This document shows, piece by piece, positions 1 through 7,496 of a stretch of DNA of 7,496 nt. The translations under genes were made by a program, and so were the position numbers. Each line of letters begins with the position of its first letter. Positions within the stretch are counted from its first letter, which is position 1. Origin of the DNA: a virus (taxonomy: Duplodnaviria > Heunggongvirae > Uroviricota > Caudoviricetes); IMG/VR virus record IMGVR_UViG_2660238126_000008, one strand, 5' to 3'. Under the pieces are notes generated by a model that saw only the letters and a list, made by a program, of their open reading frames with translations, made no database searches and had not been told where the DNA came from.

Positions 1-330
1 AGAGATGGCCGTCGATTTAACCCCAGTGTTTTTAAAGATACTTATCAATATGGTTATACAAGCTCAGGTCAAAATACCTGGGGTGTACAAGGCTCAGTAG
101 GTATGTCTACGGGGTGGTTAGCTAATACCAGTACAGATGGTAATCATAGCCACTCACTGTCCGGCACAGCAGCATCTGCAGGTGCACACGCGCATACTGT
201 CGGTATTGGTGCTCATACGCACTCCGTTGCGATTGGTTCACATGGACACACCATCACCGTTAACGCTGCTGGTAATGCGGAAAACACCGTCAAAAACATC
301 GCATTTAACTATATTGTGAGGCTTGCATAA
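1..330 (+). CDS. stfR: Phage side tail fiber protein, C-terminal end (5'-partial; runs off the window start)
   Basis: Frame 1 is open from base 1 to the TAA at 328-330. The translation ends ...[41 protein letters not shown]...NYIVRLA, with four HxH motifs typical of tail fiber tip domains. It is followed directly by a tail fiber assembly gene and a pin-type invertase. The symbol rests on the downstream gene order (pinR-ynaE-uspF-ompN) as in E. coli K-12 Rac, recalled from memory. Confidence 0.8.
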
Positions 331-905
331 TGGCATTCAGAATGAGTGAACAACCACGGACCATAAAAATTTATAATCTGCTGGCCGGAACTAATGAATT
401 TATTGGTGAAGGTGACGCATATATTCCGCCTCATACAGGTCTGCCAGCAAACAGTACCGATATTGCACCGCCAGATATTCCGGCAGGCTTCGTGGCTGTT
501 TTCAACAGTGATGAGGCATCGTGGCATCTCGTTGAAGATCATCGGGGAAAAACCGTCTATGACGTGGCTTCCGGCGACGCGTTATTTATTTCTGAACTCG
601 GTCCGTTACCGGAAAATGTTACCTGGTTATCGCCGGGAGGGGAATATCAGAAGTGGAACGGCACAGCCTGGGTGAAGGATACGGAAGCAGAAAAACTGTT
701 CCGGATCCGGGAGGCGGAAGAAACAAAAAACAACCTGATGCAGGTAGCCAGTGAGCATATTGCGCCGCTTCAGGATGCTGCAGATCTGGAAATTGCAACG
801 GAGGAAGAAATCTCGTTGCTGGAAGCATGGAAAAAGTATCGGGTATTGCTGAACCGTGTTGATACGTCAACTGCACAGGATATTGAATGGCCAGCACTGC
901 CGTAG
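330..905 (+). CDS. tfaR: Tail fiber assembly protein (Tfa family)
   Basis: 191-aa ORF whose ATG overlaps the upstream stop (TAATG at 328-332). The protein ends ...[17 protein letters not shown], a typical Tfa/gpG-like C-terminus, and lies immediately 3' of the tail fiber gene. Confidence 0.85.
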
Positions 906-1002
906 GGTAAAACATATAAATTCTATAATTAGATGTATCTTTCCATTTACGGCAAGGAAGGGGGCTTGGAAGACGTAAAGCATCTCACACCGAGATTATT
1001 TT

Positions 1003-1593
1003 TTATATGTCAGGTGTCTGAAGTTTTGCTTTGGCTCTTAAAATGGTTTGCCGCGAGGTTTTGAATTCCCGGGCAATGGCACTTATACTTACACCTGACT
1101 TAATTCGTTCGAATACCACCTGTTTCTGTTCTTCATTTAACACAGGTGGTCGACCAAAACGTTTCCCTGCGCCGCGGGCTCTTACTATCCCGGAATGAGT
1201 GCGTTCAAGTAAAAGGTCTCGTTCAAATTCAGCGACTGCTGAAATTACTTGCATCATCATTTTTCCTGTTGGACTGGTCAGGTCAATGCCAGCCAATGCT
1301 AAGCAATGCACTCTGATACCTGTTTCGGTCAGTTGTTCCACTGTTTTCCTGATATCCATTGCATTACAACCAAGGCGATCCAGTTTTGTCACAATCAATT
1401 GATCACCACATTTCAGGCGAGCAAGCAACCGGTTAAAACCAGGACGCTCACTGGTTGCTGCTGAGCCGCTAATGTGTTCTTCGATTATTTGCTGAGGTTT
1501 GATTTTAAAACCTGCACTTTCGATTTCCCGGCGTTGATTTTCGGTGGTCTGATCCAGCGTTGATATCCGACAGTAAGCAAAAATTCGAGACAT
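1003..1593 (-). CDS. pinR: Serine recombinase, DNA invertase family (Pin/Gin/Hin/Cin-like, 196 aa)
   Basis: N-terminal YCRISTLDQ motif with the catalytic Ser, a resolvase catalytic-domain pattern ([13 protein letters not shown]...) and a C-terminal HTH region ([20 protein letters not shown]). Convergent with tfaR, ATG at 1591-1593. Symbol from remembered K-12 PinR and gene context. Confidence 0.88.
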
Positions 1594-1909
1594 AGTGAGA
1601 CTCTATACGAAATTGGTGTTCATATCATAATGCATCTCAGAAAATAATTATGATTATTTTTGTGCATATTTGTATGTACACGTTCGAAAATAAACGAATG
1701 CGTATGCAACCCCGTAATTTTGGTGAGACCCAAAATCGATTTTGTGAAAAATGGCTTTAACTCGGTTTGTTTTTCGAGTTCCGGGCGGACTCAAGGAAGA
1801 AGAATAGTGTTGCGTGTTATTTTAACCAGATTTCAAGTTGTTTGGTCGTGGAAAAGTGGAGCAAAATGTTGTTAAAGTGGAAAAATGATAAAAAAGTAAG
1901 TTTATTATA

Positions 1910-2143
1910 TTACATTTTACCATTTAAATTTTGGTTGTCTTTAAGAACTGATATCGCTGTTTGTAATAATTCTTTGTTATCCAGCCATGATTTTTTCTTT
2001 ATGTTTCCTTCAATGTAATCAAGCAATGTTCTGGTATTGATAGGTCTTCCCTGTTTTGCTACTTCCACTACAGCATTCCCTAGGATAATTCTTACTTCAG
2101 GAAGCTGCGCAGGGAACCACTTTAGGGTGTCTTTTGATTTCAT
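1910..2143 (-). CDS. ynaE: Small Rac-prophage protein YnaE (YdfK paralogue family, 77 aa)
   Basis: The ORF-track entry 1910..2176 has an internal ATG at 2141-2143 preceded by AAGGAA about 8 nt upstream (minus strand). The product MKSKDTLKWFPAQLPEVRIILG... matches my recollection of YnaE/YdfK. The longer 88-aa start at 2176 has no RBS. Confidence 0.6.
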   Translation of the reverse strand: MKSKDTLKWFPAQLPEVRIILGNAVVEVAKQGRPINTRTLLDYIEGNIKKKSWLDNKELLQTAISVLKDNQNLNGKM

Positions 2144-2250
2144 GAAGATATTCCTTAAAATATTATTGATTTTCATTGCGATATTGTATGTCTGATTCAG
2201 GATATGTTGACTTATACATCGGTTTTGTCTGGGTTATTGGATATGCCAAT

Positions 2251-2267
2251 CCCTAATTTTATTAGGG
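2251..2267. repeat. Perfect 17-bp palindrome CCCTAAT-TTT-ATTAGGG
   Basis: Read directly from the sequence: 7-bp inverted arms around a 3-nt centre, about 110 bp upstream of the ynaE start, in an AT-rich non-coding stretch. Confidence 0.6.
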
Positions 2268-2722
2268 CATGACTAAAAATGCTGAATATGATAAGGAGAG
2301 ATGTGATTATCAGTATGCTGTTCATATAGCCTCGAATTAGTAATGTGTTATATATGATATAGTTGACAATTTTTATCTTGGGTGTTCTTAAAGTTCGTAG
2401 ATAAACATTGTCGTTTCAGGTATACAGGAATGCTAACAGGTGGCAGCAAAAATCAGGCGGTTTATGGCGCAAGCTGAAGCGGCAACTGCAAACTATCTTA
2501 TGCAGAGACTCTACACAGATTGGGTTTAAAAGTATACATAGATAACAGTTTTTATCTGAAGAAGAAAAATATCAAGGTGATATAGCCTATATGCCTATGA
2601 TGCGGAGGAATGAATGTGATGGGAGTGATGTATCTGAATAGTTGAAAAACCGCAGTCACGTCGTATGCAAGAACGTGCTGCGGTTGGTTTGACTTTGATT
2701 GAGACGTTTTGGAATTTTTTTT

Positions 2723-2775
2723 GTGGCAAAAATGGGGCAAAACGCTGCAAAAGGGGCAAAAAAGGGGCAAAAAAA
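2723..2775. repeat. Array of about five phased G-rich/A-tract units (GGGGCAAAA-like, period ~10-11 bp)
   Basis: Sequence reads gtggcaaaaa / tggggcaaaa / cgctgcaaaa / ggggcaaaaaa / ggggcaaaaaaa. A-tracts recurring at roughly one helical turn are the classic signature of intrinsically curved DNA. Confidence 0.7.
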
Positions 2776-3068
2776 GAGTGGATTATCGTAGTTTATTGTT
2801 CTCGCTGATGATGTTTAACACATTGAAAAATAAGTAAAACACTTATGAGTCAGATAGTTGTGATTTTTGCCCTTACTTGTTCAGGTTGTATTGTTCTTTC
2901 TTACTAATTTCTTGATTTTGCGACATTTAAAAGCGACTCAATTCGTTATATGGCATCAGAAGAGTATGCGTCATGCCGGAACGCCCAGCATAAGAAATCT
3001 GATATAAAAACTGTGGCGTGTATGGTACGGATTAGAGGGGAAAATGTCAGCACATTTGCGAAATGAAT

Positions 3069-3095
3069 CAAAAAGCCCGCAGCAATGTGCGGGCG
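3069..3095 (-). terminator. Rho-independent terminator downstream of uspF
   Basis: GCCCGC-(8 nt loop)-GCGGGC hairpin at 3075-3094, followed on the minus strand by a TTTTT run (plus-strand AAAAA at 3070-3074), starting 7 nt after the uspF stop. Confidence 0.6.
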
Positions 3096-3101
3096 TTAGT
3101 G

Positions 3102-3617
<516 letters not shown>

Positions 3618-3643
3618 TTAGATCAAAGGAGGAAGAATAAGCA

Positions 3644-3668
3644 GAAAAAGCCCGCCATAACAGCGGGC
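3644..3668 (-). terminator. Rho-independent terminator downstream of the ompN 3' end
   Basis: GCCCGC-(7 nt loop)-GCGGGC hairpin at 3650-3668, followed on the minus strand by TTTTT (plus AAAAA at 3645-3649), just 3' of the porin stop codon at 3677-3679. Confidence 0.65.
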
Positions 3669-3676
3669 AGGAGGAT

Positions 3677-3979
3677 TTAGAACTGATAAACCAGACCTAA
3701 AGCGACAATATCATCGGTAGAGATGCCATTGGCAGCGTAGAAACTGTCATCTTCATCCAACAGGTTGATTTTATAGTCAACATAAGTGGACATGTTTTTA
3801 TTGAAATAGTAAGTCGCGCCAACATCGGCGTATTTAACCAGATCTTTATCATCAACACCTGCCGGGTTGTCTGCACCACCGGCAGCGTGCAGGTCACGGC
3901 CTTTAGACATCAGGAAAGAGACTGCCGGACGCAGACCAAAATCAAACTGGTACTGTGCCTCATGGGGTTGGCTGAACAA
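3677..3979 (-). pseudogene. ompN: Porin (OmpC/OmpF/OmpN family) C-terminal fragment, about 95 codons; 5' three-quarters of the gene absent
   Basis: Translation ...[12 protein letters not shown]...[19 protein letters not shown]...[12 protein letters not shown]-stop, including the conserved C-terminal YQF of general porins. The minus-strand frame runs into unrelated sequence above ~3962 and hits a stop at ~4019, so no N-terminal barrel or signal peptide is present. Symbol from its position next to uspF. Confidence 0.75.
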
Positions 3980-4165
3980 TGTATCCCTGTATGGTGGTTC
4001 AGTTTTAACAAACCGTGATTATCAATCTCTGGCTGCCGGCGTTGGCTTTAACCTTAACTCATTGGGTTCATTATCTTTTGATGTCACACGATCTGATGCT
4101 CAGTTGCATAATCAGGATAAAGAAACGGGTTATAGCTACCGCGCTAACTATTCAAAACGTTTTGA
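3969..4165 (+). pseudogene. Internal fragment (~65 codons) of a fimbrial usher (chaperone-usher pathway outer-membrane protein)
   Basis: Part of ORF 3867..4211 translates ...[65 protein letters not shown], matching remembered usher motifs (NWSLYGG; xSxDxTxSxAxL; SxRxxYSKRF). The first ~33 residues of that ORF are just the antisense of the porin fragment. No start codon, signal peptide or downstream usher sequence. Confidence 0.55.
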
Positions 4166-4950
4166 ATCATATCGGCAGCCAGTTTTTCACTGTTTTCCTG
4201 CTCTTTGTTGACCAGCGGGAAATACTTGTCAGACAGCAGTTCACGACCGCAAATCACCACCAGATCGTCATCGTCCTGGTAGACCACATCGATAAGCTCA
4301 TTGACGGCATCCATCACTACGGCGTCCAGGTTGGCATATTCGCCACCTTTCCCGACTTTCACCGCGCCCGGTGTGGTTTCACCGCCCGTGGTGGTGCTGC
4401 CCATGACGTGATCCGGTGCATCCTCACGGATTTTCTGCAGCCAGCCTTTGTTCACATCCTGCAGCAGCGGGTTTTCGCTACGGTTGGAGGTTTTCGCACG
4501 CTTCACGCCGTTAAAGCCGATCATGATGCGGTCCAGTGCCTGACGTTTCACGATGGCGTTACGGATACGCACCTGGAAATCCTGAAACTTCGCCCACAGG
4601 TCCAGCTTCGCGTAGGTCAGCACCGTGTCAAAGTTGGTCTGTTCGCATTTGTATTCCACATCGACCATCAGCGTCGGATCGACAGGTTCTCGCTCTTTCG
4701 CGGTGGTATCAGTGGTTCCGGCAATGGTGCTGCCAACACCCAGCCCCAGCAACTGACCAGACTGCTCAGTCACTGGCGTGACGTTAATCAGCGTCAGGAA
4801 AGCGGCGGACTGCTGGATCTGGTCTTCCAGCGTCTGCTGCACGGACGGCTCTACGGTGAACTTGCTGGACAGTTCTTCAACTGCCACACCGTTCAGACGC
4901 GCCAGCTGCTGCAGGTAAGCGTTAAAAGCAAAGCGGGTATTCTTCTTCAT
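4144..4950 (-). pseudogene. P2-family major capsid protein (gpN-like), N-terminal ~262 residues; C-terminal third missing
   Basis: Translation MKKNTRFAFNAYL...FTVEPSV...LDLWAKFQDFQVRIRNAIVKRQALDRIMIGFNGVKRA...KVGKGGEYANLDAVVMDA...KYFPLVNKEQENSEKLAADMI closely parallels my recollection of P2 gpN. After ...AADMI it reads QNVLNS-stop, which is the antisense of the usher fragment. ATG at 4948-4950 with GGAG upstream. Confidence 0.8.
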
Positions 4951-4966
4951 CGGGTTTTGTGCTCCA

Positions 4967-5800
4967 TCAGCAATTGGTCAGAGTGTCAGCGGGGGCGTTA
5001 CCGCCTGTTGCACGCTGGCGGTAGTCCTGGCGGCTGTCTTCATGACTCAGCTTATTCACCAGTTCGTTAAAGGCGGTCTGCTGTGCCTGCAGGGCAGTCT
5101 CCAGCTCAGACAGACGTTCTTCCTGCTCAGACAGGGATTTTTCGGTGCGTGCGCTCAGGTTTTGCTGCTCAGTGGCGACCAGCTCCACGGCCTTATGCAC
5201 ATCAGAGAACCGGGCATCGTCGGACTGCTCTTTTTTGGTAAACAGCGCCGTGACACGGGCAAACAGGGACGGTTTGTCCTCCTGGATTTCTTCCAGTTCG
5301 ATCACTGTTTCCTCTGCGGCGGTAAAGAGATTGGCGGGATTCTGCTTGCGGTTTGCCAGCGGGTTATGGGCTGCACTGGCGCTGAATGTCAGCATTTCCG
5401 TACCCAAACTGGCAGGGTCATCAGTGGCAGCCAGGCCGACCAGGTAGGCTTTGCCCGTATCAGCGAACTTCGGGCTGACTTCCATAGAGGTGAATAATTT
5501 CTGGCCTTTTTTCACCAATTCCACCAGGGACTCCGTTGGCTCAACGTCGGCATACAGCGCCATCTTGCCTGCCAGCGGGCCTTCCGTGATTTCTTCAGCA
5601 AACAGCGCCGTCACCTTGCCGTAACGGTTAAAGGTGCTGTCCGGGAGATAAGACTTGATGTGCTCAAGGTTAATCAGCGCGGTATACACCGCCGGGTTGT
5701 AGCTGGCTGCCATCTGTTCCAGCCATTCACGCTGGATTTCGCGTCCGTCGGTGGTGGCACCTTCCACCCCGATGCGAAAACGCTTTGCTTTCACTGTCAT
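4967..5800 (-). CDS. P2-family capsid scaffolding protein (gpO-like), 277 aa, apparently full length
   Basis: Translation ...FRIGVEGATTDGREI...INLEH...GKAYLVGLAATDDPASLGTEMLTF...SDDARFSDVHKAV...ATGGNAPADTLTNC parallels remembered P2 gpO. ATG at 5798-5800 with GGAG about 11 nt upstream. It sits directly upstream of the capsid gene (16-bp gap), as in the P2 O-N arrangement. Confidence 0.85.
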   Translation of the reverse strand: MTVKAKRFRIGVEGATTDGREIQREWLEQMAASYNPAVYTALINLEHIKSYLPDSTFNRYGKVTALFAEEITEGPLAGKMALYADVEPTESLVELVKKGQKLFTSMEVSPKFADTGKAYLVGLAATDDPASLGTEMLTFSASAAHNPLANRKQNPANLFTAAEETVIELEEIQEDKPSLFARVTALFTKKEQSDDARFSDVHKAVELVATEQQNLSARTEKSLSEQEERLSELETALQAQQTAFNELVNKLSHEDSRQDYRQRATGGNAPADTLTNC

Positions 5801-5878
5801 GAGCCGTGCTCCGTTAGAAATAACTTACTGGAGCCTTATGGTTGCGGTGATGGGGGCAGTGAAACAATGCGCGGTATT

Positions 5879-5896
5879 TGTACCGACAACCACACA
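5879..5896. promoter_or_regulatory. TGT-N12-ACA dyad, candidate Ogr/Delta-type late-activator site in the divergent O/P intergenic region
   Basis: tgtACCGACAACCACaca read directly from the sequence, centred about 87 bp upstream of the scaffold-gene ATG. In P2-family phages late promoters carry this dyad near -55 relative to the transcription start. A possible weak -10 (CATAAG, minus strand, ~5834-5839) lies in between. The transcription start is not known. Confidence 0.4.
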
Positions 5897-5942
5897 AACC
5901 GCAGGCGGGGAAAGCCTTCATTCAAGGCTGTAGGTTTGTGCC

Positions 5943-7290
5943 ATGAACACCACACTGACACCCGCAGATCTCGATCCCCGTCGGCAGGCCATGCTGCTGT
6001 ACTTTCAGGGATACCGCGTAGCCCGCATTGCTGAAATGCTGGGCGAGAAAGTTGCAACCGTTCACAGCTGGAAGAAACGCGACAAGTGGGGTGACTATGG
6101 GCCGCTGGATCAGATGCAGCTCACCACCGCCGCACGTTACTGCCAGCTCATTATGAAGGAGCACAAAGAAGGGAAAGATTTCAAAGAAATTGACCTGCTG
6201 GCGCGCCAGTCGGAGCGCCACGCGCGGATCGGCAAGTTTAACAATGGCGGCAACGAAGCCGACTTAAACCCTAACGTCGCCAACCGCAACAAAGGCCCGC
6301 GCCGTCAGCCGGAAAAGAATGTTTTCACCGATGAACAGATAGAGAAACTGGAAGAAATCTTCCATTCCTCCATGTTCAACTACCAGCGCCACTGGTGGGA
6401 AGCCGGAAAAACCAACCGCATCCGCAACCTGCTGAAGTCACGCCAGATCGGCGCGACCTTTTACTTTGCCCGTGAAGCCCTGATTGACGCCCTGCTTACC
6501 GGACGTAACCAGATTTTCCTTTCTGCCAGTAAGGCACAGGCTCACGTCTTTAAGCAGTACATCATCGACTTCGCCAAAGAAGTCGAGGTGGAGCTGAAAG
6601 GCGATCCGATGGTGCTTCCTAACGGGGCCACGCTTTACTTCCTCGGCACCAATGCCCGCACGGCGCAGAGTTACCACGGCAACCTGTATCTGGATGAATA
6701 TTTCTGGATACCGAAATTCCAGGAGTTGCGCAAAGTGGCTTCCGGTATGGCTATTCACAAGAAATGGCGACAAACCTATTTTTCCACGCCATCCAGCCTG
6801 ACCCACAGTGCTTATCCGTTCTGGTCCGGTGCGCTGTTCAACCGTGGACGCAACAAAGCTGACAAGGTGGACATCGACCTGTCCCACAGCAATCTGGCCC
6901 CCGGCCTGCTGTGCGCAGACGGGCAATACCGCCAGATAGTCACCGTGGAAGATGCGGTGCGCGGCGGCTGTAACCTGTTCGACCTCGACCAGCTGCGCAT
7001 GGAGTACAGCCCGGACGAATACCAGAACCTGCTGATGTGCGAGTTCGTGGACGATCTCGCGTCCGTGTTCCCGCTCAGCGAACTGCAGGCGTGCATGGTG
7101 GACAGCTGGGAAGTCTGGACCGACTTTCATGCACTGGCCCTGCGCCCGTTTGGCTGGCGCGAAGTGTGGATCGGTTATGACCCGGCAAAAGGTACGCAGA
7201 ACGGCGACAGTGCCGGATGCGTGGTGGTGGCTCCGCCAGCCGTGCCGGGTGGTAAGTTCCGCATTCTTGAGCGTCACCAGTGGCGCGNGA
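5943..7290 (+). CDS. P2-family terminase large (ATPase) subunit (gpP-like), 3'-truncated at the N cluster
   Basis: About 449 codons from the ATG at 5943-5945, with a Walker-A-like SRQIGATFYF and a Walker-B-like NLYLDEYFWIP. Divergent from the scaffold gene as P is from O in P2. The reading frame stays open to the window end only because of N bases; recognisable terminase sequence stops near ...ILERHQWR (~7287). Confidence 0.82.
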
Positions 7291-7299
7291 TGNNCNNCN
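7288..7299. other. Cluster of six ambiguous bases (N at 7288, 7293, 7294, 7296, 7297, 7299) at the terminase/purL breakpoint
   Basis: Read directly from the sequence (gcgngatgnncnncnt). Two further N bases occur at 7473 and 7477. Confidence 0.95.
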
Positions 7300-7301
7300 T
7301 C

Positions 7302-7496
7302 ACGCACTTCCACGCGCCCTTCACCATGAGAGACAGCAATCGGCATTTGCGAGCCCACCATCCCCTGCAACAGCAGCGACGGGCTTTGGGTCACTTCAAC
7401 CAGGCTGAAACGCGCTTCAAAGCGATCGGAGGTATTGCGCACAAAACGTGGCCACAACTCACTACCTGGGATNATTNGAGAATCGCCGGCAGGTGA
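7302..7496 (-). CDS. purL: Internal fragment of phosphoribosylformylglycinamidine synthase (PurL), glutaminase-domain region; partial at both ends
   Basis: Minus-strand translation from the window end reads ...[57 protein letters not shown], with the amidotransferase HGEGR motif, matching my recollection of E. coli PurL near its C-terminus. The M of ORF 6438..7457 is a TTG codon inside this fragment. Below ~7300 that ORF is just the antisense of the terminase gene. Confidence 0.6.

Follow-up and report, generated by a model that had tools for sequence, protein, structure and literature searches.

An orphan fimbrial usher fragment joined to a truncated P2-type capsid gene: very probably a false join in a chimeric Escherichia coli draft contig

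Described arrangements that resemble the junction

Inter-locus misassemblies in draft bacterial genomes, the relocation/translocation class of assembly-quality tools, share with the contig analyzed here the joining, within genes, of pieces that each match a distant intact locus exactly, the presence of ambiguous bases where pieces meet, and a configuration confined to a single draft assembly. The present contig, CCBV01000312.1, is unusually dense for this class, with seven joins in 11.2 kb and kilobase contigs alternating with read-sized pieces, and it differs in that two of the joins, including the one between the usher fragment and the capsid gene, are seamless and contain no N.

Two natural situations offer partial parallels. 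Filler-DNA insertions occur at junctions formed by illegitimate recombination or end joining, and the locus resembles them in having a short orphan fragment between two deletion endpoints with 0–3 bases of microhomology. However, filler capture would have to be repeated along 11 kb to produce the present contig, and it cannot explain Ns at positions where the parental sequences disagree. Degraded remnants of P2-family prophages provide another likeness, a truncated capsid gene beside intact scaffold and terminase genes, whereas the P2 piece considered here is 99.7% identical to an intact prophage and is cut at both ends by unrelated core genes. The truncation is therefore a property of the contig rather than of the prophage.

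Finally, the PDSM model concerns chimeras that form between strands of one molecule or of similar molecules and lead to low-frequency variant calls (PMC10908179). The breakpoint between the usher fragment and the capsid gene coincides with the end of an 18-base palindrome, as in these palindrome-associated chimeras, but its partner is an unrelated locus ~0.5 Mb away.

Composition of the source contig

The window, i.e., the whole stretch of DNA that was analyzed (7,496 nucleotides; IMG/VR record IMGVR_UViG_2660238126_000008), corresponds to bases 3–7498 of the reverse complement of CCBV01000312.1, an 11,245-bp draft contig of the NCBI draft assembly GCA_000936365.1. Contig coordinates, in the orientation of the window, are obtained by adding two to the window position. 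The whole contig was mapped, parental loci being found by megablast against 5,426 complete E. coli genomes and by local BLAST against the fetched parents, and the gene content of the window was read from the ORF listing and Pfam scans.

Eight E. coli pieces originating from eight unrelated loci follow one another in the contig (Table 1). All seven boundaries between them fall inside genes. Three of the pieces are multi-kilobase and five are read-sized (156–491 bp). The pieces are ~100% identical to intact genes, and no decay was seen in them.

Table 1. Coordinates of pieces, genes, and junctions (window positions unless marked as contig positions)
Feature	Position	Strand	Description
Rac/uspF/ompN piece	contig 1–3960		
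Usher piece	contig 3961–4170		210 bp
P2 capsid, scaffold, and terminase gene piece	contig 4168–7294		
purL piece	contig about 7290–7474		about 185 bp
tssA piece	contig 7476–7966		type VI secretion gene; 491 bp
rbfA/truB/rpsO/pnp piece	contig 7970–10846		
wcaE piece	contig 10857–11088		about 232 bp
yrbG piece	contig 11090–11245		about 156 bp
Segment A	1–3958		Rac-type prophage end and chromosomal neighbours: stfR 3' end, tfaR, pinR, ydfK, ynaM, uspF, ompN 3' part
ompN remnant	3677–3958	-	stop codon and C-terminal 93 codons (285–377 of 377)
Junction 1, ompN–usher	3958/3959		blunt; zero shared bases; zero N
Segment B, yqiG-type fimbrial usher gene, internal orphan fragment	3959–4168	+	210 bp; codons 384–454 of 834
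Chimeric ORF	4144–4950	-	268 aa; P2-family major capsid residues 1–262 of 352 and 6 foreign residues
Perfect palindrome ATTCAAAACGTTTTGAAT	4150–4167		18 bases; native to the yqiG-type usher gene; ends at the junction 2 breakpoint
Junction 2, usher–capsid	4166–4168		parents share only ATC; zero N
P2-family capsid scaffolding protein gene (gpO family)	4967–5800	-	intact, 277 aa; Phage_GPO profile positions 2–268 of 268; L002 annotation
P2-family terminase ATPase subunit gene (gpP family)	5943–7287	+	first 448 of 588 codons; cut by junction 3
Junction 3, terminase–purL	7288–7299		12-base zone; 50% parental identity
Segment D, internal purL fragment	7300–7472	-	about codons 1148–1209 of 1295, including the N zone; 100% identical to L004
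Junction 4, purL–tssA	7473–7477		N at 7473 and 7477, both parental disagreements; tssA continues past the window end
Further joins: tssA–rbfA, pnp–wcaE, wcaE–yrbG	past the window end		

Segment A matches many complete E. coli genomes at 100% identity across all of its 3958 bases and is authentic contiguous E. coli DNA. The genes read in it from the ORF listing and Pfam include a tail-fibre assembly gene, a Pin-type invertase, and uspF. At its right-hand end, the ompN remnant is without the N-terminal 284 codons (in parental coordinates), and the minus-strand ORF at 3677–3979 covers only positions 255–337 of the 337 positions of the Porin_1 profile (Pfam). Within tfaR, positions 673–871 of the plus strand give a full-length Rfam match to IS009 (RF02111), scoring 220.9 bits where the gathering score is 117. 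The mechanical ORF of uspF (3102–3608, minus strand) encodes 168 aa from a GTG start, compared with 144 aa in the RefSeq annotation (window 3102–3536); the longer version probably reflects just an in-frame start codon further upstream.

The P2-family piece (window 4166–7292) is 99.7% identical to a P2-family prophage in E. coli chromosomes, and its terminase gene maintains 99.7% identity to the locus L002 up to the join. Both ends of this piece are cut inside genes and joined to unrelated genes, with neither IS elements nor attachment sites at the cuts. The head-gene block (4166–7287) also matches records in phage collections at ~97.4–97.6% identity, mostly Klebsiella phages (e.g., 4LV2017). 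Taken together, the Klebsiella-phage and E. coli prophage matches indicate that near-identical head modules are common to Escherichia and Klebsiella.

Among the smaller pieces, the tssA piece (3280–3770 when the contig is read in its own orientation) matches a type VI secretion gene at 99.4% identity. Only 94 of the 5,426 complete E. coli genomes have this gene, in about half of the cases on large plasmids, and the source isolate probably carries a tssA-bearing plasmid or island. Compared with intact wcaE, the wcaE piece lacks one base of an AA run beside junction 6 (CTGGATAT vs. CTGGAATAT), which may be due to a read error of the homopolymer type or to the conflicting consensus.

The two breakpoints around the usher fragment

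Junctions 1 and 2, which are 210 bp apart, were located by in-register three-way comparison. The original prediction had placed a mid-gene junction between usher and capsid sequences at about position 4165, and this breakpoint was confirmed to within 3 bases. The proposed orphan usher fragment also stands: it is 210 bp long, comes from the interior of a usher gene of 834 codons, matches the intact copy at 100% identity (parental locus L001, 3001–3210), and spans positions 188–257 of the 549 positions of the Usher profile (PF00577). A functional fimbrial usher would be a complete protein of ~830 aa with its own start and with chaperone and subunit genes as neighbours; the fragment does not have this form, and no chaperone or fimbrial subunit genes are situated alongside it.

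On the other side of junction 2, the capsid gene is 100% identical to its parent from position 4166 onward. Its truncation, the second element of the original prediction, was borne out in position and corrected in size. Aligned to the full-length 352-aa protein, the translation covers residues 1–262 and ends with ...KLAADMI, as had been predicted, while the number of missing codons is 90 (91 counting the codon split by the join) rather than ~95. The tail QNVLNS and the stop at 4144 are the usher fragment read antisense, and the capsid alignment falls short of this stop, up to which an untruncated gene had been suggested to align. The match to Phage_cap_P2 (Pfam PF05125) is confined to profile positions 1–252 of 327; hence, the product shows neither the whole-profile match nor the length of ~350 aa of a full-length P2-family major capsid protein. 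Similarity does not simply fade out by chance at this break, because both flanks keep 100% identity to their parents as far as the join.

The palindrome ATTCAAAACGTTTTGAAT is the sole one with arms of at least 9 bases in the 11.2-kb contig, with 0.04 expected, and the chance of one of its ends lying within 2 bases of any of the seven junctions is ~0.006. Past the shared ATC, the junction 2 parents retain a weak gapped similarity to ~4182 (14/17 bases), the local alignment score being exceeded by 1.5% of random pairs (p ~0.015). Parental similarity above chance was also observed at junction 3 (p ~0.02); at junction 1, local similarity of the parents is no higher than chance, and the same holds for junctions 4, 5, and 6. 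This pattern of sequence similarity is suggestive, but not decisive, of homology-driven joining at junctions 2 and 3.

Restriction-site or cloning scars were searched for by eye at the junctions, and none were seen. The GAATC on the usher side is unmatched on the capsid side, and the TGATCA of the capsid parent is lost at junction 2. With no such scars, ligation of restriction fragments is unlikely.

The original prediction held that the configuration would prove real if it recurred in independent assemblies; such recurrence was looked for, and none of these assemblies has the joins. In the search of 5,426 complete E. coli genomes, where pieces within ~1 kb were merged into one place, no place covers more than 49% of window positions 3600–4700. 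Hence, the ompN, usher, and capsid pieces occur together in none of these genomes (0/5,426). In strain 120899, for example, ~523 kb separate the usher piece (3.04 Mb) from the capsid gene (3.57 Mb). A 36-mer spanning junction 2 has zero exact matches in GTDB species-representative genomes, IMG/VR viral contigs, and JGI metagenome contigs, and a 38-mer spanning junction 1 has zero exact matches in GTDB species-representative genomes and JGI metagenome contigs. In an index of 153 billion gene positions, the exact chimeric 268-aa capsid protein is encoded by one contig only, CCBV01000312.1.

A P2 prophage residing beside the usher operon, followed by a deletion, was considered as a source of junction 2 and rejected: no genome has both within ~1 kb, and this scenario is also opposed by the usher piece being just 210 bp long with ompN on its other side.

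Ambiguous bases and the origin of the joins

The non-ACGT characters of the contig are not randomly placed. They cluster exactly at junctions 3–7, with none at junctions 1 and 2. At junction 3, the terminase sequence in register reads G GATG GA C TT C C and the purL sequence A GATG CG C CG C A, and the contig reads N GATG NN C NN C N. Thus, N stands at all six parental disagreements, and all six agreements are kept. Ns are likewise restricted to parental disagreements at junctions 4 and 5, and at junction 6 most of them are at such positions, the register there being blurred by a 1-base gap. No physical DNA molecule encodes the disagreements between two parents, but such a pattern can arise when two superimposed read sets are merged into one consensus; hence, the junctions with Ns were made, or at least polished, in software. 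Masking by the data provider, a trivial source of Ns, was rejected, since the separately fetched public contig has identical Ns and these track the parental disagreements.

We consider with high confidence that the usher–capsid junction is a false join in a chimeric, misassembled draft contig. Three hallmarks of a chimeric contig were found here: pieces from non-adjacent loci, joins that are not reproduced in independent assemblies, and ambiguous bases at five of the joins. The view that two breakpoints ~200 bp apart around an orphan fragment are hard to explain naturally is thereby supported, the usher–capsid junction being one of seven mid-gene joins on the same contig. The flanks are 100% identical to intact parents up to junctions 1 and 2, which fits copies of intact genes of the same strain. 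The signature of conflicting consensus is seen at the other five joins only and is extended to junction 2 by association: as junctions 1 and 2 belong to the same chain, have flanks identical to intact genes, and are absent elsewhere, they are probably artefactual as well. It also counts against a misjoin that a standard assembler would not accept as an overlap the 12 bases of junction 3, over which the parents are 50% identical.

An assembly or finishing step would have strung together three genuine contigs of several kilobases (Rac/ompN, P2 head genes, and rbfA–pnp) and, in the same process, taken in five short read-sized pieces (usher, purL, tssA, wcaE, and yrbG). The faulty step was presumably computational, i.e., permissive end-joining or gap closing, and the Ns may stand for columns of conflicting consensus, either directly or by conversion from an ambiguity code. 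The end of the usher piece at 4168 probably reflects a read or sub-contig that terminated at the 18-base palindrome; permissive end-joining would then have attached the usher piece to the P2 contig. We infer that behind the join there is no fused gene, decayed prophage, or product of recombination in the organism itself. The join, almost certainly an artefact, would then have no biological novelty or importance.

There is a small chance that the chimera is physical, made in vitro by ligation or polymerase template switching during library preparation or whole-genome amplification and then faithfully assembled. A blunt junction 1 and three shared bases at junction 2 are expected of ligation or microhomology-primed chimeras, the parents around junctions 2 and 3 are more alike than ~98% of random pairs, and the short pieces are of read size (156–491 bp). 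Moreover, the junction 2 breakpoint is at the end of the only 18-base palindrome of the contig, and chimeric artefact reads associated with palindromes or inverted repeats have been documented in NGS libraries (PMC10908179). Two considerations weigh against this origin. Firstly, a single molecule has one sequence and would not alone place N at parental disagreements. Secondly, for seven such events to follow one another within 11 kb, many chimeric molecules of independent origin would have to be strung together. A library-level chimera is, however, a possible contributor to junction 2, and even if the in vitro explanation were true, the feature would remain an artefact.

A real chromosomal rearrangement appears very improbable. 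By this account, illegitimate recombination or break repair deleted the 3' end of the capsid gene and the 5' part of ompN, and captured the 210-bp usher piece as filler. Degraded P2-like prophages do occur in E. coli, there is no N at either junction 1 or junction 2, and the 3-base microhomology with weak flanking similarity at junction 2 fits microhomology-mediated end joining. A natural rearrangement of this kind would be recognized by its junction in related strains; no related genome or assembly has it, and either join is absent from the complete genomes and other assemblies searched. The contig has five further mid-gene joins marked by Ns (those involving purL, tssA, rbfA–pnp, wcaE, and yrbG), and its pieces are ~100% identical to intact genes and free of decay. 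That junctions 1 and 2 alone are real, owing to break repair seeded at the palindrome, while the other five joins are separate assembly errors, is scarcely credible.

With a false join as the preferred explanation, the significance of the contig is one of data hygiene. CCBV01000312.1 feeds chimeric proteins into public protein collections and could lead to wrong conclusions about prophage boundaries, synteny, or gene fusions. Similar contigs could be flagged automatically by isolated Ns at parental disagreements together with read-sized orphan pieces between kilobase blocks. The junction-spanning gene calls on this contig include, besides the 268-aa product combining capsid and antisense usher sequence, products of 517 and 250 aa.
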